From IMG/VR virus record IMGVR_UViG_3300028886_000075: a DNA stretch of 64,000 nt, one strand, 5' to 3'. The notes beneath the pieces are model-generated. The model saw nothing but the letters and a program-made list of their open reading frames with translations. It was not told where the DNA came from and did not search any database. This DNA is from a virus. Taxonomy: Duplodnaviria; Heunggongvirae; Uroviricota; Caudoviricetes. How positions within the stretch are numbered: the stretch's first letter is position 1; the number at the start of each line of letters is the position of its first letter. The position numbers and the translations under genes were made by a program. Of the stretch, positions 2,282 through 64,000 are shown in pieces.

Positions 2282-2282
2282 T

Positions 2283-3195: not shown

Positions 3196-3217
3196 AGAAT
3201 TTATAATTTGTAAACAA

Positions 3218-3769: not shown

Positions 3770-4233
3770 AAAATCTAAAAGACATTATATTAGAAAAATT
3801 AATAATCAATAAAAACACTAAAATTGATAATTATCATTATCATCCTAAAGATAAAGGTGAACTAATGAAATTATTAGATAAACTTATTGAAGAAAGAGGA
3901 TGGGAAGGTAACTTTAATGATATTGATACATCTAATATAACAGATATGTCTATGTTATTTACATTCTCACGTCCAAAGTTTAATGGTGATATATCGGAAT
4001 GGGATGTAAGTAACGTTACCAATATGCGTTTTATGTTCTGTGATACAAAATTCAGTGGCGATATATCAAATTGGGATGTAAGCAATGTTAAATATATGAC
4101 TGAAATGTTTTATGGGTGTAATGATTTTAATTGTAATTTAAATAAATGGGATGTAAGTAAAGTTGAAGATACAAGAGATATGTTTTATGGATGCCCATTA
4201 GAAAAAAATCCACCAAAATGGTATAAAATATAA
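3766..4233 (+). CDS. BspA-family (DUF285-type) repeat protein, CTS-like N-terminus
   Basis: Four or more repeats of GDISxWDVSNVxxMxxMF. ATGA overlap with the upstream paralog. Confidence 0.7.
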   Translation: MKNLKDIILEKLIINKNTKIDNYHYHPKDKGELMKLLDKLIEERGWEGNFNDIDTSNITDMSMLFTFSRPKFNGDISEWDVSNVTNMRFMFCDTKFSGDISNWDVSNVKYMTEMFYGCNDFNCNLNKWDVSKVEDTRDMFYGCPLEKNPPKWYKI

Positions 4234-4245
4234 ATATATTAAACT

Positions 4246-4917: not shown

Positions 4918-4920
4918 ATA

Positions 4921-4975
4921 TTAAACTATGAAAAACTTATAATTTATAAACAAATGAAGAACCTAAAAGACATCA
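4921..4975. repeat. duplicated 5-prime module (vestigial start 'ttaaactatgaaaaa' plus 37 nt matching 3201-3237 with 1 mismatch)
   Basis: Direct comparison: 3201-3237 'ttataatttgtaaacaaatgaagaacctaaaagacat' against 4938-4974 with one substitution. 4921-4935 matches the 4240-4254 start context. Confidence 0.7.
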
Positions 4976-5457
4976 TATTAGAAAAACTTTCACCATTTAA
5001 TGTTTGGATAATGGTAGGTCTTCCTGGTGCGGGTAAATCAACATATATTAAAGAAAAATTACCTAAATCAATTAATATAGTTAGTCAAGACTATATAAGA
5101 CAAGAATTGGGTATAATAAAAGATGATACTCATAAGGCAATAGGAACCACTGAACAGGAAAAAGAAGTTACAAAAATAAATGATGAAAGAGTTGAAAAAC
5201 TTATTAAAGATAGAAAAGATTTTGTAATTGATAATACAAATGTTAAAGTAGGACGTGTTGAAAATTATTATAATAGGTTAAAGAAAATTGGTGCTAATGT
5301 TAAAATTGTTGTTGTTGATACACCTATAGAAACTTGTATTAAACGTAGAAATGATTGTATACCTGAAAACGTTATAAAACAAATGAATATTGGCATACAA
5401 AATGTTAAACAACAATTCAAAGATAATAAAGATTTAGAAATTGTTCATAATACTTAA
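4954..5457 (+). CDS. P-loop nucleotide/polynucleotide kinase-like protein (T4 Pnk kinase-domain-like), CTS-like N-terminus
   Basis: Walker A GLPGAGKST. VIDNTNVK parallels T4 Pnk ISDTNLN. 167 aa, so there is no phosphatase domain. Shares its first 12 aa with the DUF285 paralogs. Confidence 0.55.
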   Translation: MKNLKDIILEKLSPFNVWIMVGLPGAGKSTYIKEKLPKSINIVSQDYIRQELGIIKDDTHKAIGTTEQEKEVTKINDERVEKLIKDRKDFVIDNTNVKVGRVENYYNRLKKIGANVKIVVVDTPIETCIKRRNDCIPENVIKQMNIGIQNVKQQFKDNKDLEIVHNT

Positions 5458-5934: not shown

Positions 5935-6014
5935 AATATTATTTAATTTATTTTTGTTTATTATTGAAATTTTTTAAATATGTACTATATTGTATATAAC
6001 AAATAATAAATAAT

Positions 6015-20489: not shown

Positions 20490-22193
20490 ATGACAAATAA
20501 GCGTTGCTTAATTTATGAAACATTAGGCAAAGTTTCAGATCTTCAGATTGTTGAGTCTGAAAATAGCAACGAAATGCGTCTTCATGGTATATTTGGTGTA
20601 TGTGGAATAAAAAACCAAAATAATCGTGTTTATGATAAAGATAATTACGGTCAAATGGTTGAATCTTTACAAAAAGAAATTCAAGAACATGGATGTCCAG
20701 GTGAATTAGAACACCCTAATTCTATGAATATTAATTTGCAAAATGTTTCACATAAGATAGAAGATATTCAAATGAATGAAGATGGTACAATTACTGGTAC
20801 AATACTTTTGCTTAATACTCCAAGTGGTAAGATTGCAAAAGCTATTGTTGAAGGTGGTTTACCACTTTATATTTCTTCTCGTGGTGCCGGTACAATTACT
20901 AATGAAGGTCGTGTTACGTTATCTACTATTAAGACATATGATCTAGTTGGTACTCCTGGATTTAGTCAAGCTAAACTTACTTTAAAGCCAAATCAAACTC
21001 TTGAATGTCTCAATGAAGGTCTAGATAATGATACAAATATCTGGGCAGTTATAGATGAAGGTAAAGATGATGATGATTTACTTGATAGTAATAATGACAA
21101 AGATAAGGATTCTAATGATAATGAATCTAAGGATAAATCTAAAGAAGAATCTAAGGATAAATCTAAAGAAGAACCAAAAGATAATGAAAATGACGATAAC
21201 AAAAATAATGGCAATGATAATATTGATATGAAAGAATTGAAAGAAGCTATAGATAAACTTACAGAAAAAGTTGAATCTTTAGAAGCTGAACTTCATGTAG
21301 CTCAAGAATCTTTGAATGAGACAAAAGAATCAATTAAGCCAATTAATTATGAAGCAATCGAGAAGTGGTGTACTGAGGAATTTGCTCCATCTTTAAAAAA
21401 TGAATTTAATGAAGATGTAGAAGAAAAAATTCAAAACAGTATCAATGAATCAATTGAATCATTAATGGATAATGTACAAAATTGGATAGTTGAAGAATTT
21501 GCTCCAGAAGTACAAAATTGGGTAGTTGAAGAATTTGCTCCAGAAGTACAAAATTGGGTAGTTGAAGAATTCTCACCTGAAGTACAAAATTGGATAACAG
21601 AAGAATTTGCTCCAGAAGTACAAAATTGGGTAGTTGAAGAATTTGCTCCAGAAGTACAAAATTGGGTAGTTGAAGAATTCTCACCTGAAGTACAAAATTG
21701 GATAACAGAAGAATTTGCTCCAGTTGTTGAAGGTTGGATAACTGAAGAATTTGCTCCAGAACAATCACAAACTATTGAAGCTAAAGTAAATGAAAATGTA
21801 TCTGCATTTATGGAATCTCAAAAGGCAGGTCGTTTAGATGAAATTGATAGCTTATTAGAATCTATTTCTCAAGATAGTAATTCAGATGTAAATAAGATTA
21901 TTAAAGAACAAGCTATTGAAAATAAATATAAAGGAGTTTTTGTTGTAGAAAATATGCCTTCTCAATATACACCTCAATGGGAATTATTAGATGAAGCACG
22001 TCAACAAGAAATAATCCGTACATCAAAAATGTATGATTTCTCTAAAGAAGGTGTTTTAGAATCATTCTGGGCTAACCAAGATTTATCAAAAACTACTGTA
22101 ACTAATAAAGTAAATGAATCAGTTAATCCAATTAATTCATACCAAATGTCTATAGTAGAAAAGATGAAAGCTCTTCGTAATCATGCAATTTAA
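20490..22193 (+). CDS. gp21: prohead protease (T4 gp21-like, peptidase U9 family) fused to an acidic repeat-rich C-terminal (scaffold-like) region
   Basis: The N-terminus aligns by eye with T4 gp21: PGELEHP against LGELNHP, YISSRGAGT against GVSSRGLGS, and DLVGTPGFSQA against DAVWGPSAP. The C-terminus has a KD/E low-complexity stretch and 8 copies of QNWVVEEFAPEV. Confidence 0.8.
   Translation: MTNKRCLIYETLGKVSDLQIVESENSNEMRLHGIFGVCGIKNQNNRVYDKDNYGQMVESLQKEIQEHGCPGELEHPNSMNINLQNVSHKIEDIQMNEDGTITGTILLLNTPSGKIAKAIVEGGLPLYISSRGAGTITNEGRVTLSTIKTYDLVGTPGFSQAKLTLKPNQTLECLNEGLDNDTNIWAVIDEGKDDDDLLDSNNDKDKDSNDNESKDKSKEESKDKSKEEPKDNENDDNKNNGNDNIDMKELKEAIDKLTEKVESLEAELHVAQESLNETKESIKPINYEAIEKWCTEEFAPSLKNEFNEDVEEKIQNSINESIESLMDNVQNWIVEEFAPEVQNWVVEEFAPEVQNWVVEEFSPEVQNWITEEFAPEVQNWVVEEFAPEVQNWVVEEFSPEVQNWITEEFAPVVEGWITEEFAPEQSQTIEAKVNENVSAFMESQKAGRLDEIDSLLESISQDSNSDVNKIIKEQAIENKYKGVFVVENMPSQYTPQWELLDEARQQEIIRTSKMYDFSKEGVLESFWANQDLSKTTVTNKVNESVNPINSYQMSIVEKMKALRNHAI
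21474..21762 (+). repeat. in-frame 36-bp tandem repeat x8 (encodes VQNW[IV][VT]EEF[AS]PE)
   Basis: Direct repeats of gtacaaaattgggtagttgaagaatttgctccagaa with minor variants. Confidence 0.85.
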
Positions 22194-22300: not shown

Positions 22301-24058
22301 ATGTTTAATGAACAAAATGGCGCACAGACATGGGAGAAAATGTTGAAAGAAAACTTCAACGTAACAGACCAGGAAAAACTTAACTGGGTTTCTCAATATG
22401 CTGCTATTCACGAAATTCACGAATCTCAACTTGGAATCAATGGTGGTAACGTAGTAACAAGTACAGCTTATCCAGGTGTTGGTCCTATCTATACAACTCC
22501 AATGAATACTCTTGGTATTGGTAACCCAACTGCTCCAAGTCAATTAGATCCAATGAGCACTGCTCCTTACAATCAAGCTAACCCAACAGGTTCATTCTGG
22601 GGACAAACTCCAGGTTCTGGTGATATTCCAGTATCTACACTTCCAATGGCTCTTAACGTTGCATTGTTAACTATTGGTCTTGAACTTGTACCTGTTATTC
22701 CTGCTAAGGGTCCTTGGGCTATGTTAACATACATGGACTTCCCATACGCTGGTGGTAAACTTGGTCGTGTAAATGAAACATCTTTCGATGGTAAAGGTGA
22801 AAAGAATGAAAACAAACCAATCTACATCAAGATTAAAGGTTTAACACTTCCACAAATCGCTGAAATACGTGAAGCTATGGAAGCTGCTCAAAATCCTGTT
22901 AAAGCTGACGATGCTGTAGTAGTTGCAGGTTTCAAAGGTACATTCATTATGCTTGGTCGTATGGATGCTTGTCCTCTTGTTAAGGTTGTAGAATGCACAG
23001 ATGCAAATACTTCAATAGTTGAAGAATTTAATGCTGCTACATCTGTTGTAATTGGTTCTAAGACAATTACTCTTGCTGCAGGTCAAAAGGTTACTCCTGA
23101 TTTCGTACAAACATCTGTTGATTTAGTTGACGGTTTCGCTAACTTCGCTACAGGTAAGAAAGAATCTATGACACGTGCTCAAAATGAAACTGGTACAGGT
23201 AATGTAATTGGTCTTCGTTTATTCAGTAAGTGGGTTCAAATGGGTTCATACGAAGTTACTGGTACTGTAACTCGTCAACAATTACAAGATCTTCCACTTT
23301 ATGGTGTTGATGCTGTAGGTAAAGTTATGGAAGCTCTTCAAAACGAAATTACACAACACATCAACCAACGTATTCTTGAAAGAGTATTTGCTCTTGGTGT
23401 TACAAATGCTGTACAACAAAAGGCTCGTCAAGGTGTTGATTTGAACTTGTGGATGGGTAAGACAGGTGCTTCTGTTGACATGGCAGATCATTATGCTGGT
23501 GTTCCTCACTTCACAGATATCTATGGTACAGACCATAAACCATTATGGAAAGGTATTTCTAACTCTGAAGTTAACACTTCTGCAGAAAATCTTTCAACAC
23601 GTCAACGTCGTATCATGAGCCGTATCTTAGCTGCTGCTAACTTAATCCAATTGGTAGGTCGTCGTGGTCGTCCAACATGGATCGTTACTAACGGTAAGAT
23701 TGCTTCTGCTCTTCAAGATGTATCTGGTTATGTAGTTGCTCCAATGCTTAATACAATGTCTCAAGCTAATACTCAAAACTTATATCACGCTGGTACAGTT
23801 GCTGGTCTTCAAGTTTATGTAGATCCATATATGGACTGGAATGATACACGTATCTGTATTGGTCGTAAGGGTACAGGTAATGAACCTGGTGTAATATTCA
23901 TGCCATACATTCTTGCTGATACTGTATCTATCACTGCTGAAGGTACAATGGCTCCTAAGATGTTGGTTAACAGCCGTTATGGTATCGCTGAAGCTGGTTT
24001 CTTCCCAGAACTTGCATACTTCACATTGGTTGTTGATTCAGAATTTGATTTGATCTAA
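22301..24058 (+). CDS. gp23: major capsid protein (T4 gp23-like)
   Basis: Several collinear matches to T4 gp23: DLPLYGVDAVGKVMEALQNEITQHINQRILE against LRAVHGMDADAELSGILATEIMLEINREVVD, GRRGRPTWIVTNGKIASALQDV against GRGEGNFIIASRNVVNVLASV, and the C-terminus MPYILADT...RYGIAEAGFFPE against APYVALTP...RYGIGINPFAE. Host-optimal codons. A terminator follows the gene. Confidence 0.88.
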   Translation: MFNEQNGAQTWEKMLKENFNVTDQEKLNWVSQYAAIHEIHESQLGINGGNVVTSTAYPGVGPIYTTPMNTLGIGNPTAPSQLDPMSTAPYNQANPTGSFWGQTPGSGDIPVSTLPMALNVALLTIGLELVPVIPAKGPWAMLTYMDFPYAGGKLGRVNETSFDGKGEKNENKPIYIKIKGLTLPQIAEIREAMEAAQNPVKADDAVVVAGFKGTFIMLGRMDACPLVKVVECTDANTSIVEEFNAATSVVIGSKTITLAAGQKVTPDFVQTSVDLVDGFANFATGKKESMTRAQNETGTGNVIGLRLFSKWVQMGSYEVTGTVTRQQLQDLPLYGVDAVGKVMEALQNEITQHINQRILERVFALGVTNAVQQKARQGVDLNLWMGKTGASVDMADHYAGVPHFTDIYGTDHKPLWKGISNSEVNTSAENLSTRQRRIMSRILAAANLIQLVGRRGRPTWIVTNGKIASALQDVSGYVVAPMLNTMSQANTQNLYHAGTVAGLQVYVDPYMDWNDTRICIGRKGTGNEPGVIFMPYILADTVSITAEGTMAPKMLVNSRYGIAEAGFFPELAYFTLVVDSEFDLI

Positions 24059-39334: not shown

Positions 39335-39529
39335 ATGAAACAAATAAAAGAATTTATTAATGAATCAAACGAATGGAATCCATCATTAGATTCTCATAAA
39401 GTTGCATATAATAACTTTGTTAAATGGTATGACAAATGTTTAAAACATTTAAATAAAGAAGAAATATTAGATTTACTTAATGGAGCAATTAAAGAAATTG
39501 AAGATGATTCATTAGATATCATAAAATAA
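39335..39529 (+). CDS. hypothetical protein, CTS-like N-terminus (MKQIKEFINES)
   Basis: Conserved N-terminal motif. Confidence 0.6.
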   Translation: MKQIKEFINESNEWNPSLDSHKVAYNNFVKWYDKCLKHLNKEEILDLLNGAIKEIEDDSLDIIK

Positions 39530-39547
39530 ATATATTGAAACTAATTA

Positions 39548-40069
39548 ATGAAATCAATAACTCAATATATATATGAAGCTGTAGAAAATTATAGATTGAA
39601 TTCTGTTGAAGTTACATATAATGTTCAACCAGAAGAATTAATATTACAAGCACCTGAAACATTCCAAGAGTCAGATATCCAACAATACATAGACGATATG
39701 TGGCTCAATCAACTTCCATCTTCTCAAGACTATTCTGAAAAATTCTTTGGAAAAAATAATGATAATATATCTGATGCATATTTTGAATATGATTCATTTG
39801 AACATCTTTCAGTAGAACCTAAAGATTATATTGAATGGAATTCAAAATATGATGTTAAGAAAAGTGGAGATGACATTACATTAGAATACTTTAAAATAAC
39901 AAATCTTAAATATCATATTAATTTTGATAGATTTGATATGGTTGATGTTGATGATGATAATGTAGAAGAAAAACTTAAAGATATATTTAGAACCACAGAA
40001 TCTAATAAAGAAAATGAATATCCTATAGAAATTCAATTTGATGAAGATTCACTTGAATATAGAAAATAA
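39548..40069 (+). CDS. hypothetical acidic protein, CTS-like N-terminus (MKSITQYIYEA)
   Basis: Conserved N-terminal motif. Confidence 0.6.
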   Translation: MKSITQYIYEAVENYRLNSVEVTYNVQPEELILQAPETFQESDIQQYIDDMWLNQLPSSQDYSEKFFGKNNDNISDAYFEYDSFEHLSVEPKDYIEWNSKYDVKKSGDDITLEYFKITNLKYHINFDRFDMVDVDDDNVEEKLKDIFRTTESNKENEYPIEIQFDEDSLEYRK

Positions 40070-40129
40070 ATAAAACAAAATAAAGATATTATATAGAGGC
40101 ATAATACCAAATACATCTATGATTATCTT

Positions 40130-40339
40130 TTGATTACAAAACCTCGATCTGACTGTAATAAACATATTATTAAACGTGAACATTACTGTAAAAAAGACGG
40201 TGAATGGAAACCTAAGAAAAAGTTTAATAGTGAAGAAGAAGCCAATACATGGATAACAAAATATAAAATGTACAAATATACTGCATATATATGTAAAGTC
40301 TGTGGAAAATGGCATATAGGTATTAAAAAGAAAACATAA
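40130..40339 (+). CDS. small zinc-ribbon-like protein
   Basis: CNKH...HYCKK...CKVCGKWH, 69 aa. Confidence 0.45.
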   Translation: MITKPRSDCNKHIIKREHYCKKDGEWKPKKKFNSEEEANTWITKYKMYKYTAYICKVCGKWHIGIKKKT

Positions 40340-40359
40340 AAACATTAAAAAATCAATAT

Positions 40360-40677
40360 ATGAAAGATTTAATTAGTATAATAACAGAATCAAGAAAAGA
40401 AATATGTCCTGAAGTTCAAAATGAATTCGAAAATGATTATGCATATCAATCTTATACAACAACAAAATCAAAATTTGATTATGGATTTTTAACATTTGAT
40501 GCTAATCAAGAATTTTATTCTGTTGTTGGAGTTAATGAAAACAGTGAATTCATTGATTCTTTATGTAATGATTTTAATTTAGATGCAGAAGAATTATTAG
40601 ATTTAAAAGTTGGTGAATCAATAAGTGATAAAAGCCATGGAGATAATTATAACTATTCAATTTTAAGAATTTGGTAA
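40360..40677 (+). CDS. hypothetical protein, CTS-like N-terminus (MKDLISIITES)
   Basis: Conserved N-terminal motif. Confidence 0.6.
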   Translation: MKDLISIITESRKEICPEVQNEFENDYAYQSYTTTKSKFDYGFLTFDANQEFYSVVGVNENSEFIDSLCNDFNLDAEELLDLKVGESISDKSHGDNYNYSILRIW

Positions 40678-40701
40678 AAATATAAAATATAATCACATAT
40701 T

Positions 40702-41196
40702 ATGAAAAATTTAACTGAAAAACTTAATATACAAAATATTAATGAATCAGTCGCAAAAGATATTAAGATTCCACGTAAAGGAAGCACTGTATATCTTTTA
40801 AAAGATGGTGATTCTAAAGCAATACCTGTAAAAGTCAATAATGTCACAAAGGTTAAGAACTCTTGGTATGGACGTTCAGGTGGATATGATGTAATTATTG
40901 AATTAGAAGATAATGAATATAAATTTGATGGCTGGAAAACATCACATTATGCAGACCCAAAATTAGATGAACCTATTCAAGTAGATACAAAATCAGTACA
41001 TGGAATTGGCACTTTTTACGTTGGTACATCTAAAGAAGTAATTTCAGAATTCATAAAGAATGGTGCGACAAAGAAACTTAAAATGTTACTTAAAGAAATA
41101 GAAGATGCAGAAAATCAACTTGCAGAATTAAATCGTCAAAAGAATGAACTTCAACAAAAGATTGACACTGAAATTACAGAATCTTTAAATAAATAA
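40702..41196 (+). CDS. hypothetical protein, CTS-like N-terminus, C-terminal coiled coil
   Basis: MKNLTEKLNIQNINES. C-terminus LKEIEDAENQLAELNRQKNELQQKI. Confidence 0.6.
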   Translation: MKNLTEKLNIQNINESVAKDIKIPRKGSTVYLLKDGDSKAIPVKVNNVTKVKNSWYGRSGGYDVIIELEDNEYKFDGWKTSHYADPKLDEPIQVDTKSVHGIGTFYVGTSKEVISEFIKNGATKKLKMLLKEIEDAENQLAELNRQKNELQQKIDTEITESLNK

Positions 41197-41205
41197 TTTA
41201 TAATT

Positions 41206-41487
41206 ATGAAAGACATTAAAGAAAAACTATTAAGCCAGATTAATGAAGACAGATTTGCATATTCATGGCAAAATGCTTTCATAAATGCTATCATATCATT
41301 AAATGATGTTGATGGTGAAATTCCTTGTCGTGAAATAGTCAATAAATGGTTTAATGATGAACAAGCTCTTCATGAATTATATACATTCTTATATCGTATA
41401 GATTGTAAACCTGAAAAGAAGGATGTAAATTCTATAGTTGAAGCAATTATAAATAAATCATCAAAATTGAAAACTTACAAGATATAA
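41206..41487 (+). CDS. hypothetical protein, CTS-like N-terminus (MKDIKEKLLSQINED)
   Basis: Conserved N-terminal motif. Confidence 0.6.
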   Translation: MKDIKEKLLSQINEDRFAYSWQNAFINAIISLNDVDGEIPCREIVNKWFNDEQALHELYTFLYRIDCKPEKKDVNSIVEAIINKSSKLKTYKI

Positions 41488-41508
41488 AAATATATGAGTT
41501 AAACAAAT

Positions 41509-41772
41509 ATGAAAAATTTAAAAGATAAATTAGTTTTGGAAAATGAAGAATCTGCAATATTTACATTAACTGCTAAAGATTTAGATAAGATACTTTTTTC
41601 ATTATCATTTACTGCTGGGTGGGCTAGCGAAGTTAATTCATATGAAATGAAAGAATATAAGAAACTTTGGGATGAATTAAATAAAGGAGCAAAGAAATCA
41701 TTTGATGCAGATATGTATGTAGATGACTGGGATGATTATGAACTGGCTCATACAGGAAGCTTTAAACATTAA
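41509..41772 (+). CDS. hypothetical protein, CTS-like N-terminus (MKNLKDKLVLENEES)
   Basis: Conserved N-terminal motif. Confidence 0.6.
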   Translation: MKNLKDKLVLENEESAIFTLTAKDLDKILFSLSFTAGWASEVNSYEMKEYKKLWDELNKGAKKSFDADMYVDDWDDYELAHTGSFKH

Positions 41773-41803
41773 TTATATAATAAATTATGAGAATACTTAA
41801 ATA

Positions 41804-42154
41804 ATGAAAGACATTAAAGAATATATTAATGAATCTAAAAATTTCAAATTAGAATCTGATGAACGTCAAGCTTTAGCAGACTTAATTGGTATGTTATGCG
41901 GTAATATTGGAAATGATGAAGATATAAACAAATTAAAATCTGTAATAGATCAATTAAGTAAAGAAGAAATAAAACAATTAGATAATCTTCATGATTGTTT
42001 AGATGATGAAGAAACATATAAGAAAATAAATCGTAATATTATTATTGATGATATTCCATTGATTAAAAAAATATATAAATTAATGGATGATAATAATTTA
42101 TTAGGAGAACAATGGGATCTTATTGATGCTTTAGAGAAAATAAATGAATATTAA
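41804..42154 (+). CDS. hypothetical protein, CTS-like N-terminus (MKDIKEYINES)
   Basis: Conserved N-terminal motif. Confidence 0.6.
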   Translation: MKDIKEYINESKNFKLESDERQALADLIGMLCGNIGNDEDINKLKSVIDQLSKEEIKQLDNLHDCLDDEETYKKINRNIIIDDIPLIKKIYKLMDDNNLLGEQWDLIDALEKINEY

Positions 42155-42156
42155 AT

Positions 42157-42558
42157 ATGAAACAAATAACATCATATTTGTTAGAAGGTCTTCGTATCAA
42201 TAAAGATATTAAAGTTAATTATGAAAGAGATGATATATACAACATTATAATTGCTGCTTATCTTTCTATATATCGTCTTAAATGTTGGACTGAAACATCT
42301 ACATTTAAAAAGAAAATTTTATATATTAAATATGAAGATATATTAAATATTCTTAATGATAATTTTGAATATACATTTACAAAAGACGATATAAAAAGAA
42401 CATCAGGATATATATGGAAAATTGTTAGAAAATATTTAATACCTATTCAGAATATGATTAATGGATATAATGTAATTATTAGAATTGAAGATGAAAAAAT
42501 AACAATTAATTATAAAGAAATTAATGAAAAGTATAAAGACATTTTAAATAAAAAATAA
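42157..42558 (+). CDS. hypothetical protein, CTS-like N-terminus (MKQITSYLLEG)
   Basis: Conserved N-terminal motif. Confidence 0.6.
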   Translation: MKQITSYLLEGLRINKDIKVNYERDDIYNIIIAAYLSIYRLKCWTETSTFKKKILYIKYEDILNILNDNFEYTFTKDDIKRTSGYIWKIVRKYLIPIQNMINGYNVIIRIEDEKITINYKEINEKYKDILNKK

Positions 42559-43496
42559 TGCAATCTTTGAATAACTATATAATAGAAACAAATATAGAAA
42601 ATATTTTTTTGGATAAATTATGTAATCATATATCATTATCATTATATATTAAATATGGTTACGGAATTTATCCATATGTTTCTTTATATGAATCATTTGG
42701 TAATTTTAAGAATACTCATAAAGTATTATATCATATTATTGAAGTATTAAAAAATGAATTCAAGTCTCAAGAAATAGATTGTACTAATGATAATGTATTT
42801 TTCAAGAAAATAAAAATAGATATAGTTAATGAAGATTATATAAGTGCAAGTTATTTAAATATTAATAATGATAAAATAGATATTGAAATATTATGTTTAG
42901 ATAAAGAAATGTTTATTGATAATATTGAAGAATATACTGAATTGATATTACATGAACTTTTACATGGTTATGAAGATTTTAACCGTAAAACAACTAATAA
43001 ACCAGATATATTTCAATTATGGAATGTTGATTATGAAAAATCTTATTTAAATATAAATAATTTTGATAAGATTAAAAGATATATAAGTAGATGTAAATAT
43101 TTTTTAAATTCACAAGAACGTAATGCGTATTTTTCATCTTTAGAATTATCTATTAAGAAAATAATTAAAGATTATCATATTACTGCAGATAATTTAGATT
43201 ATGAAAAATTCAAACATGGAATTAAACGCGAAACATTATGGGAAATTTATTTTGATTTAGGAACATTTATTCTAGGATTAAATAATATAAATAATGAATA
43301 TAAAAAGGAAATAGAAAAACAATATAATTCATTATATAATACAAACAAATCATTTAACGAAATCAAAAAAGAATTAAATAATAAATGGAAAAAATTTGAT
43401 CATAAATTCAATCAGTTAATTCCTAAAATATTATGTAAAAATATACAAATAAAAGAATTTAAAAATTCTTCTTTTAGTTTGAAAAAATTATTATAA
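42558..43496 (+). CDS. hypothetical protein with an HExxH motif (LHELLHGYEDF), CTS-like N-terminus (MQSLNNYIIET)
   Basis: An HELLH pentapeptide is followed by GY. A paralogous HELNHGY is present in the 63029 ORF. Confidence 0.55.
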   Translation: MQSLNNYIIETNIENIFLDKLCNHISLSLYIKYGYGIYPYVSLYESFGNFKNTHKVLYHIIEVLKNEFKSQEIDCTNDNVFFKKIKIDIVNEDYISASYLNINNDKIDIEILCLDKEMFIDNIEEYTELILHELLHGYEDFNRKTTNKPDIFQLWNVDYEKSYLNINNFDKIKRYISRCKYFLNSQERNAYFSSLELSIKKIIKDYHITADNLDYEKFKHGIKRETLWEIYFDLGTFILGLNNINNEYKKEIEKQYNSLYNTNKSFNEIKKELNNKWKKFDHKFNQLIPKILCKNIQIKEFKNSSFSLKKLL

Positions 43497-43508
43497 AAAC
43501 TTTACATT

Positions 43509-44396
43509 ATGAAGTCATTGAACAACTATATATTTGAATCTAAAGAAGTTTCTACAAAATCTAATAAAGAACGTCGTAAGGAATTGGAAAAATGGTTGAA
43601 ACATAAAAAGTATGACGATTATGTTGATACTTTAAATAAGATGCTTGAAGATCCTAAATCAGCTGCATTATTGGAAGATGGTTTTGGGGGAGAACTTGGA
43701 GATACAAAATTAACATTTTCAGTTAAAGAAATTCCAGTATCTCAGTTAATGCCTACACAAAAAGATATAGATTTAGATAAGTCATTAAAACATGCATTAA
43801 CAGATAAAGAATCTTTAATTAAGACTTTTGCAAATCCAATTGAAATCAATAAGCCTATTGTTACTTTTAGAGAGAATTATGTTATAGACGGTCATCATAC
43901 ATGGCTACAAGCTATAGCATTAAATCCAAAAGGAAAAATATTATCATTTAATTATGACGGTGATATTTCTCCAATTCAGATGCTTAAGGCTGTACAAGGA
44001 ACTATAGCAGCAGTTAAAGCTGATAAGAATAATAATAATGGTAAACTTCCATCAAATAATGTAAAAGGTCCTAATTTCTTTGATGAATCATTTGATGAAA
44101 AGAAAATTAGGAAATATATAGAAGATAATCTTAATGAAGACTTAATAGATCAATATATAGAAAAAATAGAAGAATGCTATGATTACGATTCTACTGTTGA
44201 TTATATAGTAGAACGTCTATTAGATATTAAGTCAAATAATTATCCATTTGATACAGCACCAGATAGAAAGAATATGCCACAAGTATTTAAAGGTGGCACA
44301 GATAAAGATGATAAAAGTTCTGCATTACCTGATAAAGAAGGTTCTGCGATGAATAAACTTAAAAATGATACCTTTTATAAAAAAGCTACCATTTAA
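43509..44396 (+). CDS. ParB/sulfiredoxin-fold nuclease-like domain protein, CTS-like N-terminus (MKSLNNYIFES)
   Basis: VSQLMPTQKDID ... PIVTFRENYVIDGHHTWLQAIALN resembles the ParB N-terminal domain (L-PTQ ... DGHHR). Confidence 0.45.
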   Translation: MKSLNNYIFESKEVSTKSNKERRKELEKWLKHKKYDDYVDTLNKMLEDPKSAALLEDGFGGELGDTKLTFSVKEIPVSQLMPTQKDIDLDKSLKHALTDKESLIKTFANPIEINKPIVTFRENYVIDGHHTWLQAIALNPKGKILSFNYDGDISPIQMLKAVQGTIAAVKADKNNNNGKLPSNNVKGPNFFDESFDEKKIRKYIEDNLNEDLIDQYIEKIEECYDYDSTVDYIVERLLDIKSNNYPFDTAPDRKNMPQVFKGGTDKDDKSSALPDKEGSAMNKLKNDTFYKKATI

Positions 44397-44436
44397 ATAA
44401 GTATAAATATGATAAATTTATAAAATCAGTTACAAA

Positions 44437-44892
44437 ATGAAAGATATAGTTAATTATATTACAGAAGCATCTTCATCAAAATTTGATTATTGGAAAGATG
44501 TAATTAAATTTCCTGGATATGAACTTAAAGTATCAAAGAAATACTTAGACAAGAAAATAAATACAAGATATTATCAGGAAGAATTCTTATATCAATATTT
44601 TGGTTGGATTAACCAATGGATTGATAAGAATGTTAAAAAGATTATTAGTATAGTAACTAAAGAAAATAAAGAGTTTCCAAAAGAAATTTCAATATCTTTA
44701 CCAAGTGAATTACATGGTGTTTTACAATTTGACTGGGATTGTGGTTGGGCAGATAATATACCAACAGGATCTCTTCGTGATGTTGAATTAAAAGTAGATA
44801 ATGTTTCACCAGGATCAATGAGTCATAGTTCATTCTATCAGGCACAAGAAGATTTACAAAATTTTAAATTAAAAGATATAATTAAATTTTAG
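44437..44892 (+). CDS. hypothetical protein, CTS-like N-terminus (MKDIVNYITEA)
   Basis: Conserved N-terminal motif. Ends with TAG, a rare stop in this window. Confidence 0.6.
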   Translation: MKDIVNYITEASSSKFDYWKDVIKFPGYELKVSKKYLDKKINTRYYQEEFLYQYFGWINQWIDKNVKKIISIVTKENKEFPKEISISLPSELHGVLQFDWDCGWADNIPTGSLRDVELKVDNVSPGSMSHSSFYQAQEDLQNFKLKDIIKF

Positions 44893-44943
44893 TTTAATAG
44901 ACAATAAATAATATTTTTAATAAATAGATATTAATATTAATTA

Positions 44944-45498
44944 ATGAAAGACATTAAAACATTTATTTCAGAAGCAAAGAAACAAACACCTAAAAAAGAA
45001 TACCCTATGAAAAAGAAAGAAACTTATGGAGATTTAGGTGAAAAATGGTTTGATAAGTGTAAAGACTTTGCTACGGCAGGAAGTACACAATGGACTAAAT
45101 ACGGTATCAATGATTTTAAAGGATTCTTAGAAGATATGGATAAAGAATTCAAACCAGGTGGAGAAGGCCGTTGGAAAAAGGATTGTGAAGTTCGTTGGGA
45201 AATGTGTCAAGCACTTAAAGATAAAGATTTAGATAAATTTGTAAAAATTGCTAAAGAAAACTATGTTGAAAAATTTACTTTTGGTGCACATCCTAATGCT
45301 GATTACACTTATGGATCATATTTTTTAGATACTTATATGCTTCTTAGAACTTACGAATATATTCTTGATGGCAATATGGTAATTCGTAATGGTATTTTAA
45401 ATGCTATCTGGAGAATTGATGATACTATGGATAATTGGTATGATAAATTTATTGATACAGTTCATAAATTAGAAAAACAAGTTCCTGGACATAAATAA
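44944..45498 (+). CDS. hypothetical protein, CTS-like N-terminus (MKDIKTFISEA)
   Basis: Conserved N-terminal motif. Confidence 0.6.
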   Translation: MKDIKTFISEAKKQTPKKEYPMKKKETYGDLGEKWFDKCKDFATAGSTQWTKYGINDFKGFLEDMDKEFKPGGEGRWKKDCEVRWEMCQALKDKDLDKFVKIAKENYVEKFTFGAHPNADYTYGSYFLDTYMLLRTYEYILDGNMVIRNGILNAIWRIDDTMDNWYDKFIDTVHKLEKQVPGHK

Positions 45499-45528
45499 AT
45501 AATATATCAAACATATAAACATATAAAA

Positions 45529-45840
45529 ATGAAACATATTAAGAATTATATATTAGAAAAAAATGAAGATAAAACTTTAAGTGGATTCTGTATCATAGAT
45601 ATGACAGATGAAACATTGATATCTAGGTGGGGAACTGGTGATTTAAGAAAATGTATAACAGAATTACAAAAGCTTAAAAAGGAAGAAGAAGATAAAGAAT
45701 ATTGGATAGTTGCTGAATTTAATGAAATATATGATTTAGAAGATACTGGTAATTATAGAGTATTATCTTCAAGAGAATATAATGAAAGAGAAGATGATTT
45801 TGGTATTAATCCAAAATTTAAAGAGTATATACTTAAATAA
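45529..45840 (+). CDS. hypothetical protein, CTS-like N-terminus (MKHIKNYILEK)
   Basis: Conserved N-terminal motif. Confidence 0.6.
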   Translation: MKHIKNYILEKNEDKTLSGFCIIDMTDETLISRWGTGDLRKCITELQKLKKEEEDKEYWIVAEFNEIYDLEDTGNYRVLSSREYNEREDDFGINPKFKEYILK

Positions 45841-59282: not shown

Positions 59283-59356
59283 TATTCATATTTTTTTTAA
59301 TATTATTTAAAATTTTAATCCTAAGTACTATATTATAATTATAAAAAATAAATAAT

Positions 59357-60140: not shown

Positions 60141-60275
60141 TATGAATATTGGAACATTTAGTATGTTAAATATGATGAGACATAACAATATGATGGAAGA
60201 ACAAAAACGTCGTCATCATAGAATGAGAGAATTAGTTGCTAAACGTAGAAAAGAAAATAATAATGAAGAAGAATG
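60141..60275 (+). CDS. small basic ORF (44 aa), stop overlaps the topoisomerase start (ATGA)
   Basis: Found by manual reading. Confidence 0.3.
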
Positions 60276-62165
60276 ACAAAGAAAATTGAAGAGAAATATC
60301 AGGAATTATCGGAAGTTCAACATATTCTTCAGCGCCCAGGAATGTGGGTAGGTTCAACAAAGTCTGAAGAAAAGGATGCCTTCATTTATAATCATAAGAC
60401 AGGAAAGTTCGAAATGAAAATCGTTAACTATATTCCTGCAATGCTTAAGGTTGTAGATGAGGTCATTTCTAACTCTTGTGATGAGTTCAGACGTAAAGAC
60501 AATATGGGTCTTACTGAACTTTATGTAAAGATTGATAAAGATAATGGAGAAATCATCGTAAGAGATAATGGTGGTATTCCAATTGTTAAGCATAAAGAAG
60601 CAGGAGTATATGTTCCTGAATTTATATTTGGACGTTTAAGAACATCTTCAAACTATGATGATACTGAAGATAGAAATGTAATAGGAACAAATGGTGTAGG
60701 ATCTGCATTGTGTAATGTATTTTCCACATTTTTTGAAATTGAGTCAGCAGATGGTAAAAATGAGTTTCACCGTTCATGGTCTAATAATATGGAGACTTTA
60801 AATGATGATCTTAAAGTTATAAAATGCGGAAAGAAGACTCATTATACACAGACACGTTTCAAATTAGATTTTAGTAGATTTGAAACTGAACTGACAACTT
60901 TTGATAATGACTTTATTAATATAATTCATAAGAGGTGTATTGATGCTGCTGCAGCTAATCCAGGTCTTAAGGTAACATTCAATAGTGGTGGCGAAGATAT
61001 TGAATGGAAATTTAAGAAACTTGATGAATACATTGATCTTTATTCTAATCTTTTGAATATATCTGATAAGATTCCATTTGAAAATGATTTATGTACTGCA
61101 TGGATATTTCCGGATAGTTCTGTTGATGTAGGTTTCGTAAATGGTGCAGAATGTTCAAAAGGTACTCACATGCGAGCTATCCGTCAAGAAATCAATCAGG
61201 CAGTTTGCGATTATCTTATAAAGAAAGATAAGCTTAAGGATTTAACTACACGTGGAGTTGATAATAAGTATTCTGTATTCATTAATATTAATGTATCTAA
61301 TCCTGCATACGATTCGCAAACTAAAGATTGCCTCACAACTCCTATTGATAAGTTTTCAAAAGATGAGAAACTAAAATGGGAAGTAAATGAAAAGTTCTTA
61401 AATAAGATCATTAAGTCTGAAATTGTTGCATTAGTAAGAGATTGGTATAAACAGAAATCTGCAGCTGAGGATGAAAAGGCACTTCGTAAAATCAATAGGG
61501 AAACAAATAAAGGATTGAAACGCCCTGATAAATATATAACATGTTCTTCAAAAGTAAGAGCAAATAAACAACTTTGGGTCTTTGAAGGAGACTCTGCAAA
61601 GGCGGGCTTTAGGGGAGGTCGTAATCCAGAATTTCAAGCAGGATTGATTATGCGAGGAGTTCCATTAAATGTATATGGAATGACTCCTGTTCAGATTATG
61701 AAGAATGAAGTATTTAATGATCTTGTTACCGTACTTGGACTTAAGTGGGGTAAAGAATTCAATATTAATGATCTGAACTTTGGTAAAATTGTTATTGCAA
61801 CTGATGCTGACGTTGATGGTGATAAGATTGCTAGTCTACTATTATGTTTCTTCAATAATTGGCCTGAACTATTTGAAAAGAATATAGTTTGTAGAAGCCT
61901 ATCTCCAATTATCATATCAAGAAAAGGAAAGGACTGCCAGAAATTCTATACAATGGATGAATTTAAAGAAGCTGAAAAGAAACTTAAAGGTTATTCTCAT
62001 AAATATGCGAAAGGTCTTGGTGGTCTATCAAATCAAGAATCAAAGGAAATGTATCAAGATCCTAAATTCTTATATTTCAAAAAAGATGAAGCTGCAGATA
62101 GTATGTTCAGAAAGTGGTTCAATAAGGGAGAATCTGAAGAACGTAAAAATATGTTGAAATATTAA
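60273..62165 (+). CDS. gp39: DNA topoisomerase II large subunit (T4 gp39-like, GyrB-type ATPase plus Toprim)
   Basis: N-terminus LSEVQHILQRPGMWVGS (GyrB/gp39 signature). GHKL ATPase motifs (IVRDNGGIPI..., GTNGVGSAL). Toprim motifs LWVFEGDSA and IATDADVDGDKIASLL. Confidence 0.88.
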   Translation: MTKKIEEKYQELSEVQHILQRPGMWVGSTKSEEKDAFIYNHKTGKFEMKIVNYIPAMLKVVDEVISNSCDEFRRKDNMGLTELYVKIDKDNGEIIVRDNGGIPIVKHKEAGVYVPEFIFGRLRTSSNYDDTEDRNVIGTNGVGSALCNVFSTFFEIESADGKNEFHRSWSNNMETLNDDLKVIKCGKKTHYTQTRFKLDFSRFETELTTFDNDFINIIHKRCIDAAAANPGLKVTFNSGGEDIEWKFKKLDEYIDLYSNLLNISDKIPFENDLCTAWIFPDSSVDVGFVNGAECSKGTHMRAIRQEINQAVCDYLIKKDKLKDLTTRGVDNKYSVFININVSNPAYDSQTKDCLTTPIDKFSKDEKLKWEVNEKFLNKIIKSEIVALVRDWYKQKSAAEDEKALRKINRETNKGLKRPDKYITCSSKVRANKQLWVFEGDSAKAGFRGGRNPEFQAGLIMRGVPLNVYGMTPVQIMKNEVFNDLVTVLGLKWGKEFNINDLNFGKIVIATDADVDGDKIASLLLCFFNNWPELFEKNIVCRSLSPIIISRKGKDCQKFYTMDEFKEAEKKLKGYSHKYAKGLGGLSNQESKEMYQDPKFLYFKKDEAADSMFRKWFNKGESEERKNMLKY

Positions 62166-62167: not shown

Positions 62168-63001
62168 ATGAAAAATTTAGGTGATTTAATAAAAGAATCA
62201 TTTATTAATACAGATATTAATGAATATGATAATTATATAATTGAAGGATTAAATATTGATCCTAATGAAAAAATTGTATCATTAACAGATAATCATAATA
62301 AAGGATTAGATTTATCATTAATTAATAATCCTGTATATAGTACATATAAAGGATATAATGTTATTTCTATTTTTAAAAGAACAAAATTATATGATATTAA
62401 TGATGTTCAAAGAGATGGAAATCCATTTATTTATGCATTAAAAAATAAAAATGGATGGAAATTTAAAATAACTGATAAAGAAATACATAAATATATTAAG
62501 AGATTTTTAGAAATATGTAAAAAAATTAAATCTTCATATGATACAATTATAATAACACCATCATCAAGTGATATTAATGAAAAATTTATGAAAGTAATAT
62601 CTAATCAAGTTAATTGTAAAGATATTATTAATGAATATTTTGTAAAATTATCTAAAGAAGAAATAATTGATGATGATTTAATTGATAAAGATCAAATTCA
62701 AAATGATTATGGAAATGATTATACTAAAGTTTTAGCAGAAATTAATAGAAGTTTTAGACGAATGAAAGGTGAATCATTTGAAGCTAAATATATTAAAAAG
62801 GAATATTTAAAATATATTAAATATATATCAACAAATTCAAATGATAATATAAGAGATAAAATAGATAATAAGGATATTTTATTATTAGATGATACTATAT
62901 CATCTGGAGAAACATTAAGTCAATGTATAGAAGGTATAATATCAAATTTTAATCCAAAATCAATTACAATTATAACATTATTATCACAGCTTAATGAATA
63001 A
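62168..63001 (+). CDS. type I phosphoribosyltransferase-fold protein, CTS-like N-terminus (MKNLGDLIKES)
   Basis: The C-terminal PRPP-binding motif DILLLDDTISSGETL matches the PRTase / PRPP-synthetase signature. Confidence 0.55.
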   Translation: MKNLGDLIKESFINTDINEYDNYIIEGLNIDPNEKIVSLTDNHNKGLDLSLINNPVYSTYKGYNVISIFKRTKLYDINDVQRDGNPFIYALKNKNGWKFKITDKEIHKYIKRFLEICKKIKSSYDTIIITPSSSDINEKFMKVISNQVNCKDIINEYFVKLSKEEIIDDDLIDKDQIQNDYGNDYTKVLAEINRSFRRMKGESFEAKYIKKEYLKYIKYISTNSNDNIRDKIDNKDILLLDDTISSGETLSQCIEGIISNFNPKSITIITLLSQLNE

Positions 63002-63028
63002 ACTTTATAGAAAATATATATCTAAATT

Positions 63029-64000
63029 ATGAAAACAATTAAAGAATATTTAGAAGATCAATTATATCAAGACTTATGCTATACATACACTGAAATAGAT
63101 GAATCTGGTGGGTTATATGATGGTCAATTAGAATTATCTACTAAAATTACTAATGATATAGAAAATAAGTTATCAAATACACTTAAATATAAATATAATG
63201 ACTTTAATATAAAAAATATATATTTTAATGAACTAGATATTAACATAACATATTTTGATGCAACAAATCATACAGTTAATGTCATATGTTTAATTGATTT
63301 TATATCAAGTGATAATAAGTGGGATGATTTTAAAAAATATAATTTTGATAAAGAAACAAATAGATTGAATAAAATTACTATTGATTTAAAATGCCCTAAA
63401 CAAGTAAATATATATTATGATAATATAAGATCTAGAATTTCGCATGAACTAAATCATGGATATGTATATTGGCAAATTATTAAAGATGATTTTTCAGAAA
63501 AAAATGTTGTTCCGGATAATTATCATAATAAATTACATGAATGGTCAAATAATATATATAATAAAATTACAAAACATATTAAAACCCCGACAAATAATGA
63601 AGCTGAACAAATTTGTTATAATTTAATTTATACTTTAACAAGATATGAACGAAATGCATTTTTATCAGAAATAATTACATATCTATTTGATAGGAATAAT
63701 GTTTTTAAAAATATAAATGATTTAAAAAGCGAATTAAATAAATCTACACAATATAAATTATATACTGATGAAGGACCAAAAATAATAGATATAATTAAAA
63801 AACATTGGTCTAAAGATAAACAGCAAATATTAGCAAACGCATATAATAAAATATATAATACAAAATACACTTCAGGAAAAATTATAAATTTATTAGAATT
63901 TAAAATTGAAGAAACAATTAAAAAAATAAATAAAAATATAAATACATTATCAAGAAAATATAAAAATGAAATAAATGAAACTATAAGTTATATACATTTT
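63029..64000 (+). CDS. hypothetical protein with an HExxH motif (SHELNHGYVYW), CTS-like N-terminus (MKTIKEYLED); 3-prime partial at the window end
   Basis: Open frame with no stop through the end of the window. Translated manually. Not in the ORF track because it has no stop. Confidence 0.5.
   Translation, partial: MKTIKEYLEDQLYQDLCYTYTEIDESGGLYDGQLELSTKITNDIENKLSNTLKYKYNDFNIKNIYFNELDINITYFDATNHTVNVICLIDFISSDNKWDDFKKYNFDKETNRLNKITIDLKCPKQVNIYYDNIRSRISHELNHGYVYWQIIKDDFSEKNVVPDNYHNKLHEWSNNIYNKITKHIKTPTNNEAEQICYNLIYTLTRYERNAFLSEIITYLFDRNNVFKNINDLKSELNKSTQYKLYTDEGPKIIDIIKKHWSKDKQQILANAYNKIYNTKYTSGKIINLLEFKIEETIKKINKNINTLSRKYKNEINETISYIHF

Follow-up and report, generated by a model that had tools for sequence, protein, structure and literature searches.

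The 64,000-nucleotide stretch of viral DNA analysed here (hereafter the window), the source of which is a giant gut phage related to Lak megaphages, encodes close to its end a non-canonical, single-domain type I phosphoribosyltransferase (PRTase)-fold protein of roughly 31 kDa. This protein and the product of the adjacent gene, a putative metalloprotease, begin with a 10-residue leader that closely resembles the capsid-targeting signal (CTS) of phage T4, a resemblance that makes packaging of both into the phage head, followed by injection, probable. Judged by its sequence, the PRTase appears to be a PRPP-binding, enzyme-like protein, for which catalysis and a substrate can be presumed.

A probable PRPP-binding protein encoded next to a topoisomerase

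The PRTase gene (62168..63001, + strand; ATG start, TAA stop) encodes 277 amino acids, starting with MKNLGDLIKES and consisting of leader, linker and a core from approximately aa 24. A textbook PRPP-binding loop had been noted in this ORF by the first-pass annotation and is indeed present: the product contains the canonical PRPP loop LLLDDTISSGET, the translation reads ILLLDDTISSGETL at aa 237-250, and ILLLDDTISSGET at aa 237-249 displays the 13-residue PRPP-loop pattern of four hydrophobic and two acidic residues, three variable positions and S/T-G-x-T. The loop LLLDDTISSGETL (aa 238-250) is encoded at 62879..62917 (+ strand), and its residues D241, D242 and G247 are near-invariant among 112 diverse family sequences. 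The Pfam model PF00156 (Pribosyltran) matches above its gathering score (28.8 against 26.3 bits) at aa 219-274 only. No hood or acceptor-site match to curated nucleobase PRTases was identified and NCBIfam scores were far below the cut-offs, including that of the HGPRTase model, which covers only the PRPP loop (28.8 bits; cut-off 150).

A structural model of the product (AF2, built on 64 diverse sequences; moderate confidence) predicts an alpha/beta core that can be superimposed on solved PRTases, preceded by a helix at aa 4-14 and a low-confidence linker at aa 16-22. An earlier model obtained from a shallow alignment of close homologs was discarded (pLDDT 54). Foldseek searches of the PDB with the model yielded nothing significant (best E = 0.34) and did not significantly recover ShosT, and a structure search of BFVD returned only uncharacterised phage proteins. 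Furthermore, the N-terminal 200 aa lack a sequence relative in the PDB according to profile searches; matches to alphaRep repeat proteins were rejected as spurious, with 'NPLIYALKxxxGW' resembling the consensus 'PLIKALKDEDGW' by chance.

The gene directly upstream encodes the large subunit of a T4 gp39-like topoisomerase II (60273..62165, + strand; phrog_543, 1.5e-160), which is 55% identical to that of Prevotella phage Lak-A1. This match, together with the position of the PRTase start codon 3 nt after the topoisomerase stop, bears out the proposed location of the PRTase-fold and HExxH genes beside a topoisomerase. The PRTase gene probably shares the topoisomerase transcript, an arrangement no less compatible with a replication-phase enzyme than with a head protein. 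A promoter-like motif, TACTATATTATA, is located at 59326..59337 (+ strand) upstream of ORF 59357 and is a candidate start of an operon comprising ORF 59357 and the topoisomerase, PRTase and HExxH genes. Each of its four exact copies precedes a gene start by 30-52 nt on the + strand, which suggests a promoter function; with one mismatch allowed, TACTATATTRTA is not enriched in the 64-kb window (9 vs 6.2 in shuffles). The late-promoter-like sequence 'ATATATAACRA' was dropped, as it showed no enrichment (21 vs 21.3 in shuffles). TAG is reportedly a sense codon in published Lak genomes; the standard code was kept here because reading TAG as sense alters almost no ORF of the window.

A large, unnamed PRTase family

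Full-length matches to the PRTase (E <= 1e-3) form 572 clusters at 50% identity, placing it in a large family without a name, whose members come chiefly from huge-phage contigs and, at greater distance, from bacterial chromosomes. Phage members often occur in multiple copies per genome and bacterial members are stand-alone genes of about 240 aa; no further paralogs of this family were found within the 64-kb window. Most phage members contain some N-terminal helical extension ahead of the core, and bacterial and some phage members open with the conserved EGIDID core itself. Hundreds of clusters show a near-invariant PRPP loop that includes both aspartates, which suggests selection for binding of PRPP and Mg.

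Among the 112 diverse family members, 94 are matched by the PADLOC model of ShosT (best 1.5e-9), 29 by the best of several retron PRTase_III-A models, and 23 by the PsyrT model. The window protein itself is matched marginally by the ShosT model (E = 1.7e-3) and by PRTase_III-A with E = 6.8e-6 at aa 206-274, which covers little beyond the PRPP-loop region. Of the characterised proteins, the PRTase domain of ShosT, a toxin, the retron type III-A PRTases and ComF appear to be its nearest relatives. The first-pass annotation had named a ComF-type or other non-catalytic assignment as contrary to its reading. The classification does fall on the ComF/ShosT-like, non-canonical side, but absence of catalysis does not necessarily follow, because ShosT toxicity requires the PRPP-binding aspartates (PMC11961720).

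In distant huge phages, family members are encoded near genes for topoisomerase II, FolD-like, dUTPase-like and dCMP-deaminase-like proteins, guanylate kinase, NT5C, NUDIX and DNMK, a nucleotide-metabolism and replication context indicating an intracellular metabolic role. The topoisomerase-PRTase gene order is repeated in one such phage (contig L012), in which the PRTase is 33% identical and a FolD-like gene comes next. In the homologous region of Lak-B2, the corresponding frame seemingly contains just a 141-aa ORF.

A shared leader resembling the T4 capsid-targeting signal

The leader pattern M-K-x-[LI]-x-x-[YFIL]-[IL]-x-E/D is found on 20 otherwise unrelated ORFs of the 64-kb window, including ORFs 62168 and 63029, and is absent from all 34 other + strand genes. 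Six-frame searches of the window with the strict pattern gave 20 matches, compared to 0.075 in shuffles. In a logo of the hand-curated set of 20 ORF starts, M1, [LI]4, [YFIL]7 and [IL]8 are present in 20/20, K2 in 19/20 and E10 in 18/20, with codons differing synonymously among the tagged ORFs. The tagged proteins have unrelated folds, comprising DUF285 repeats, an AAA_33 kinase, HExxH proteins and the PRTase. A first tagged cluster (1541..5457, + strand) contains eight genes, which encode three DUF285-repeat proteins, an AAA_33/zeta-toxin-like kinase and unknown proteins, and a second (39335..45840, + strand) contains ten counted genes in addition to two looser variants at 40702 and 41206.

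In mutagenesis of the T4 CTS, residues 4 and 7 proved to govern targeting and residues 8 and 10 processing, the gp21 protease cleaves after L/I-X-E, and D at position 10 blocks processing and still allows targeting (PMC9026906). The PRTase leader MKNLGDLIKE (62168..62197, + strand) has L4, L7, I8 and E10 and is predicted to be cleaved after E10, between E and S of I-K-E-S. The leader of the HExxH protein, MKTIKEYLED (63029..63058, + strand), has I4, Y7 and L8 with D instead of E at position 10, and this protein may therefore be targeted yet uncleaved. Among 32 leader-bearing homologs of ORF 63029, position 10 is E in 23 and D in 9. Further genes of the window specify a gp21-type prohead core protease (20490..22193, + strand; Pfam Peptidase_S77, 39.6 bits; phrog_207, 8e-37), which presumably cleaves the leaders and whose own N-terminus contains I8-Y9-E10, and a gp23-type major capsid protein (22301..24058, + strand; Pfam Gp23, 109.5 bits; phrog_138). 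The earlier proposal of a CTS tag on this gene group is hence upheld as regards the shared leader, its strong likeness to T4 and the gp21/gp23-type genes, and is qualified by D10 in ORF 63029.

Within the PRTase family, the leader is kept in 106/120 close homologs of ORF 62168 (69-100% identity), all 106 with E10, and persists at 52% identity where the neighbouring genes differ. Only 1/53 and 5/122 diverse family members carry it, the others having different extensions or starting at the core. This distribution, with retention in close orthologs and near-absence from other branches, points to a modular, lineage-specific addition in the Lak-like branch.

The HExxH neighbour and its paralog

The HExxH gene (63029..64000, + strand) has 324 codons within the window, the end of which removes the last seven codons and the stop; the complete product of 331 aa was read from an identical metagenome contig (L001). 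HELNHGY corresponds to aa 139-145, with the invariant H-E-x-x-H motif HELNH at aa 139-143 (63443..63457, + strand), and an invariant E-R-N-A motif is located at aa 207-210 (63647..63658, + strand). In an alignment of 28 family sequences, H139, E140, H143 and the ERNA residue E207 are invariant, with E207 being a candidate third metal ligand. The product is a putative metallopeptidase of zincin-like type and belongs to an orphan family: it has no sequence match in Pfam, NCBIfam, PADLOC or the PDB, and a profile of the HExxH family gave no meaningful match to PDB sequences. The leader-tagged ORF 42558 (42558-43496, + strand), located within the second tagged cluster, had been named as a paralog, and this relationship holds, though weakly. 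The two products share 27% identity over 184 aa (BLASTP, E = 0.006 for the pair), and ORF 42558 retains the invariant H-E-x-x-H, Y and E-R-N-A columns of the same 28-sequence alignment; their likeness as distant paralogs is weak but real.

Proposed role and alternative explanations

We put at roughly even chances the reading that the window encodes an injected, PRPP-using enzyme altering nucleotide pools, with packaging, cleavage, ejection, catalysis and substrate all inferred. In the Lak-like lineage, a PRTase core would have acquired the 10-residue leader via a flexible linker. The leader would dock the PRTase into the scaffolding core of the prohead, the gp21-type protease (20490) would cut after I-x-E10, and the mature PRTase would be ejected together with the DNA. 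At the very start of infection, it could bind PRPP and either consume it or transfer its phosphoribose to an acceptor, thereby potentially shifting the host purine/nucleotide economy as ShosT does, or priming the nucleotide supply of the phage. The HExxH neighbour would be a co-delivered putative zinc metallopeptidase. A broader version, which we advance only tentatively, is that Lak-like megaphages run a greatly expanded T4-style capsid targeting, in which the leader loads dozens of unrelated enzymes for co-injection, including a defence-type PRTase domain used offensively to seize host nucleotide metabolism within seconds of infection. The cargo would then include a PRTase of the ShosT/retron III-A kind, which serves bacteria as an abortive-infection toxin, a metalloprotease family, a zeta-toxin-like kinase and BspA/DUF285 repeat proteins.

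Instead of being packaged, the PRTase could be a replication-phase enzyme of nucleotide metabolism that stays in the cell, e.g. a salvage PRTase, which we consider rather unlikely. Such an enzyme might use bases from the breakdown of host nucleic acids and be co-expressed with the topoisomerase, its N-terminal helix serving assembly, localisation or expression. The 3-nt gap to the topoisomerase II stop and the location of the promoter-like motif only upstream of ORF 59357 agree with this, as do the topoisomerase-PRTase order and FolD-like gene of the distant phage at 33% identity, the dUTPase-like, dCMP-deaminase-like, guanylate kinase, NT5C, NUDIX and DNMK genes adjoining other family members, and the presence of an N-terminal helical extension of some kind in most phage members. 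However, the same 10-residue leader on about 20 unrelated window ORFs, matching the T4 CTS position by position, argues against it. Likewise, no specific nucleobase PRTase family was reached, the HGPRTase score lying far below its cut-off (28.8 vs 150 bits), and its neighbours in the profile comparisons are PRTases that act as toxins or effectors (ShosT, PsyrT, retron III-A) rather than in salvage. The PRTase could also be packaged and have a metabolic role at once.

A less probable alternative, which we regard as distinctly unlikely, is a non-catalytic, ComF-like PRTase-fold binder of nucleotide or nucleic acid without PRPP turnover, for example an internal head protein travelling with the DNA or a decoy for PRTase-based defence effectors of the host. 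Both the near-invariance of the two loop aspartates across hundreds of clusters and the missing ComF zinc finger argue against this. Least probable of all, and in our estimation very improbable, is the proposal that an Adps-type or nicotinamide-directed enzyme acts with the NMNAT-like and macro-domain proteins to rebuild NAD+ or handle ADP-ribose against NAD-depleting defences. In its favour, the window does contain genes for an NMNAT-like cytidylyltransferase (51892) and a macro-domain protein (54321), Adps has a similar length (about 282 aa), and a few homologs are labelled 'phosphoribosylpyrophosphate synthetase' by one metagenome pipeline. The PRPP-synthetase/Adps-like suggestion of the first-pass annotation conflicts with the single type I PRTase core, the poor PRPS scores and the lack of an adjacent Namat-like partner, and its link to NAD+ and ADP-ribose fares no better: the NMNAT-like and macro genes are real, but are leaderless and located 8-10 kb away, with a sigma-factor gene and others lying between them and ORF 62168. 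No NAMPT-like match was identified among the window ORFs screened. The NAD+/NARP reading consequently finds no specific support and is already weakened.

Significance

To our knowledge, no Lak-like megaphage has been cultivated, and the start of their infection is therefore almost unstudied. A leader that can be read from the sequence would allow candidate injected proteins to be listed by computation across a whole group of huge gut phages, among them a PRPP-using enzyme of an unnamed family with more than 500 sequence clusters. The sole characterised relatives of this family are bacterial toxins that need PRPP binding to kill. We know of no identified acceptor substrate of ShosT, and as the toxin relatives require PRPP binding, the phage enzyme could help to explain ShosT-type PRTases. 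Furthermore, the appealing link to the NARP pathways of NAD+ reconstitution falls away for want of support.

Comparison with known systems

ShosT, the toxin of ShosTA (PDB 8ZVB/8ZVD), shares with the window PRTase a DD pair equivalent to D241/D242, and its toxicity needs this pair and PRPP binding (PMC11961720; PMC12961424). In contrast to the 277-aa window protein, ShosT has 424 aa, some 164 of which form a pyrophosphatase (hydrolase) domain at its N-terminus, and is accompanied by the DprA-like antitoxin ShosA. The window PRTase lacks this domain and has no DprA-like ShosA gene beside it, being flanked by topoisomerase II and the HExxH gene, the latter without any PADLOC match; it is also phage-encoded, with a capsid-targeting-like leader.

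In ComF, an N-terminal four-cysteine zinc finger precedes the PRTase domain. The window PRTase contains three cysteines (C117, C150 and C253) and no CxxC pair, so that this zinc finger is missing, and it differs from ComF/ComFC (H. pylori ComF, PDB 7P0H) in the absence of an RGFNQ-type motif and of a competence-gene context and in its different conserved N-terminal subdomain. Retron type III-A PRTases and PsyrT are related through the above profile matches to 29 and 23 of 112 family members, but the surroundings of the window PRTase contain neither a reverse transcriptase nor an ncRNA or partner gene. Like the window protein, Adps of NARP1 is phage-encoded, of similar length and equipped with a DD-containing phosphoribose/PP loop (PMC13586617). 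Adps is, however, a PRPS-like ADP-ribose pyrophosphokinase with two PRPS-type domains that forms hexamers and is encoded beside Namat (PMC13586617), whereas the window PRTase has one PRTase core, scores poorly against PRPS and has no Namat neighbour; tandem PRPS-type domains (N-terminal and C-terminal catalytic) are absent from it.

The closest parallel to the leader is the CTS of T4 IPII/IPIII. The consensus in the window, MK[DNS][LI]xx[YFI]IxE, is not the T4 sequence, the Lak-like tag is a putative one, and at least 20 tagged genes, enzymes included, occur in 64 kb, compared to a handful in T4. Nevertheless, each tag takes up the first 10 residues of proteins that are unrelated in sequence, the hydrophobic positions 4 and 7 are common to the two, as are L/I at position 8 and E at position 10, and in both cases gp21- and gp23-type genes are present in the same genome as the tagged genes.

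Genomic context of the PRTase and HExxH genes

The window has a G+C content of 26.6%, and by sequence similarity its source phage is related to the Lak megaphages of Prevotella. The topoisomerase II large subunit gene (60273-62165) encodes a protein 54-55% identical to the Lak-A, Lak-B and Lak-C versions, and none of the phage records searched with this subunit was closer. TAG serves as stop in one of the 56 window ORFs of at least 90 aa, and reading it as sense alters almost nothing. In-frame TAGs, as expected in recoded Lak phages, occur in several genes of Lak-B2 and of a contig with 21% G+C, unlike in the window; the standard code applies either to the window's lineage or to this part of the genome.

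The gene for the putative phosphoribosyltransferase (PRTase; 62168-63001, + strand, 277 aa, TAA stop) has its start codon 3 nt past the topoisomerase stop. The following HExxH gene (63029 onwards, + strand) continues beyond the window end, with 7 codons missing; an identical metagenome contig gives a full product of 331 aa. Both motifs reported in the first-pass annotation were recovered: the 62168 protein has the PRPP loop (LLLDDTISSGETL) at aa 238-250, and the 63029 protein has HELNHGY at aa 139-145.

A shared N-terminal leader

Both proteins begin with a 10-residue leader that recurs in the window. The strict pattern MK-x-[ILFV]-x-x-[FYILM]-[ILVM]-x-E had 20 matches in the six-frame window translation, 17 of them at ORF starts, versus 0.075 in composition-matched shuffles. 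A curated set of 20 ORF starts forms three groups (1541-5457, 39335-45840 and 62168/63029) and contains M1, [LI]4, [YFIL]7 and [IL]8 in all members, K2 in 19 and E10 in 18, while a relaxed pattern fitted 0/34 other + strand window genes. Leaders of different genes differ by synonymous codons, which indicates selection on the peptide and not on the DNA. The shared leader is real, and its bearers are mutually unrelated: DUF285 repeat proteins, of which three lie in tandem (3218-4917), followed by an AAA_33/zeta-toxin-like P-loop kinase (4954-5457; GLPGAGKST), two HExxH proteins, the PRTase and many proteins without functional annotation. BspA-type LRR proteins at 45858 and 48844 are untagged. 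A 465-aa RNA-ligase ORF (123-1520; Pfam RNA_ligase 28.5 bits, KVDG motif) contains an internal in-frame leader copy, MKNLNVYIKE, at 1197, 107 codons from the stop, which may reflect fused genes or initiation within the ORF that gives a tagged C-terminal protein.

The HExxH neighbour

The 63029 protein belongs to a small family of 40 clusters, with no match to Pfam, NCBIfam, PADLOC or PDB sequences. In 28 family sequences, including the window paralog 42558-43496, H139, E140, H143, Y145 and E207-R208-N209-A210 do not vary, and these motifs fit a putative gluzincin-like metallopeptidase with E207 as third ligand. The leader is present in 32/39 full-length members, with E at position 10 in 23 and D in 9. 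The window copy has D10; in the T4 capsid-targeting sequence (CTS), aspartate at this position blocks cleavage and retains targeting (PMC9026906), and the 63029 leader would behave likewise. Nearly all aligned family members, not including the 42558 paralog, keep (I/L)-(E/D)-(W/L)-F as their last four residues, and the 63029 C-terminus would read ...PDGLDLF just past 64000. This C-terminal motif could be an interaction or processing signal. T4 Alt and gp21 also undergo C-terminal processing.

A PRTase family related to toxin-type proteins

Curated libraries recognise the PRPP loop alone in the 62168 protein (PF00156, aa 219-274), and none of the HGPRTase, PyrR, OPRT-like and PRPP-synthetase models of NCBIfam came near its cut-off. 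An exhaustive profile search recovered 572 clusters at 50% identity (E <= 1e-3; 299 with E <= 1e-10), mostly of 250-310 aa and matching profile positions ~20-275. Near-invariant in 112 diverse members are G27, S67, F69, R71, D83, N85, P86, A90, K92, P131, S132, N137, K160, F204, D241, D242, G247 and S273, and an N-terminal subdomain peculiar to the family (EGIDID...SIFKR...DGNPxIYALK) precedes the PRPP loop. Of these 112 members, the PADLOC profile for ShosT matched 94 (best 1.5e-9), that for PsyrT 23, and one of several retron PRTase_III-A models 29; the 62168 protein alone matched ShosT at 1.7e-3 over aa 49-271 and PRTase_III-A at 6.8e-6.

ShosT, a toxin of 424 aa, joins a pyrophosphatase domain at its N-terminus to a non-canonical PRTase domain; PRPP is bound, no tested purine is, purine metabolism is disturbed, and mutating the DD pair abolishes toxicity (PMC11961720; PMC12961424). 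The 62168 protein would correspond to the PRTase half only and lacks both the pyrophosphatase domain and a ShosA partner. It also lacks the zinc finger that is a feature of ComF. Given these absences, it is assigned on sequence grounds to the type I PRTase fold and placed among relatives of the ShosT/ComF/retron-PRTase branch; the labels ShosT, ComF and PRPP synthetase were each rejected. With its leader, the 62168 protein is a new version of an already known fold, and its relatives are of toxin type.

In IMG/VR the family occurs on contigs of 100-450 kb, frequently in two or three copies each. The closest matches in a species-genome collection lie on long AT-rich contigs within gut 'MAGs', which we infer to be mis-binned phage contigs. 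Distant members (22-31% identity over aa 27-276) reside on genuine bacterial chromosomes, e.g. of Rahnella, Devosia, Chelativorans, Marinomonas and Vibrio, as stand-alone genes of 233-254 aa that start right at the conserved core and again match the ShosT profile weakly. In bacteria, the family may take part in defence in a way not yet recognised. In Chelativorans sp., a 239-aa member (6004-6723 on its contig) lies directly 3' of a 1599-aa PDC-S37/Hhe-type helicase-nuclease (1130-5929); other bacterial members adjoin a beta-CASP nuclease (L056) or lie near an integrase-like region (L064). Two family-bearing huge-phage contigs also carry IS605 OrfB/TnpB-like genes, and one of these two a Pfam Tad3 (anti-Thoeris-type) gene (loci: L110, 12604-13845; L113, 17842-19152 and 19785-20531). 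In Prevotella phage Lak-B2, a tblastn match (MK250021.1, 509561-510331; L114, 6001-6771; 29% identity, aa 24-275) overlaps only one ATG-started ORF of 141 aa; this copy may be disrupted, split or begin at a non-ATG codon.

The leader was found in 106/120 close homologs, always with E10; of the exceptions, several seem to be start-codon miscalls, and K occupies position 10 in a few. Among diverse members it occurs in only 5/122 and 1/53, and orthologs at 73% and 52% identity retain it in differing gene neighbourhoods. By these sequence comparisons the leader is lineage-specific, with the distribution that a modular, selected targeting peptide should have. On L018 (IMGVR_UViG_3300013947_000060, 37% G+C), from another huge-phage lineage, the PRTase homolog shares a different N-terminal motif (e.g. 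KISESRLIQIIKEA, KINEQQLQSLIKES, LIITHEQLNELL, QINLTEDVLQRYIEK) with three seemingly unrelated ORFs (the four at 221-691(-), 2459-3145(-), 5986-6828(+) and 8236-8739(-)). A similar start (ITEEQL..II.E) is present in many family representatives of other phages; a second leader system, again specific to its lineage, may exist here.

Transcription and metabolic alternatives

The main rival explanation is that the PRTase is an intracellular enzyme of nucleotide metabolism. Its gene is probably co-transcribed with that of the topoisomerase, which counts on the metabolic side, and in a distant huge phage (L012) the family gene lies between topo II (before) and a FolD-like gene (after). Family genes also adjoin a dUTPase-like gene (L018) and a dCMP-deaminase-like gene (L007), these three '-like' assignments being our reading of N-terminal sequences, and precomputed Pfam matches put guanylate kinase, NT5C and NUDIX genes (L108) and a faint DNMK match (L110) in the vicinity of other members. 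Such a role is nevertheless compatible with delivery of the PRTase together with the DNA. The proposed NAD+/ADP-ribose counter-defence was not supported: the NMNAT-like and macro genes are real but untagged, and lie 8-10 kb from the PRTase in a separate gene block. The PRPS-like enzyme Adps has two domains, assembles into hexamers and is partnered with an adjacent Namat (PMC13586617), and neither this domain make-up nor a neighbouring Namat was found for the 62168 protein, for which action in a NARP-type pathway is highly improbable.

The closest promoter-like element to the PRTase is a copy of TACTATATTRTA upstream of ORF 59357. Its four exact + strand copies (5514, 5983, 47281 and 59326) lie 30-52 nt 5' of starts 5566, 6015, 47315 and 59357, and one-mismatch copies precede 30277 and the sigma-like gene 37731; with a mismatch allowed there was no enrichment over shuffles. 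We regard it as a candidate phage promoter. Two sigma-70-like genes (37731-38894 and 57541-58758; both phrog_351, the second with Pfam Sigma70_r2) each sit shortly upstream of one leader-tagged gene group, and the PRTase ortholog on contig L112 is likewise downstream of a sigma-factor gene.

Comparison with T4 capsid targeting

The N-terminal 10 residues of T4 IPIII suffice for loading a protein into the head; targeting depends on residues 4 and 7 of the CTS and processing on residues 8 and 10, and the gp21 protease cleaves after L/I-X-E (PMC9026906). These four functional positions are the invariant positions of the window leader. A full-text literature search found no paper combining 'capsid targeting sequence' with 'megaphage', and the main Lak genomics paper mentions neither N-terminal motifs nor phosphoribosyltransferases; we thus infer packaging, cleavage and ejection of the leader-bearing proteins by analogy. 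Of the suggestion that the PRTase is CTS-tagged for injection, the leader and its CTS resemblance were borne out, and tagging for injection is well grounded by analogy, though unproven. The window encodes a gp21-type protease (20490-22193; Pfam Peptidase_S77 39.6 bits; phrog_207, 8e-37), followed by a gp23-type major capsid protein (22301-24058) and tail sheath and tail tube genes; a 2188-aa ORF (13752-20318) lies just upstream of the protease and capsid genes. The N-terminus of the protease itself carries I8-Y9-E10, recalling the 'LIE-9' site of T4 gp21 (PMC9026906).
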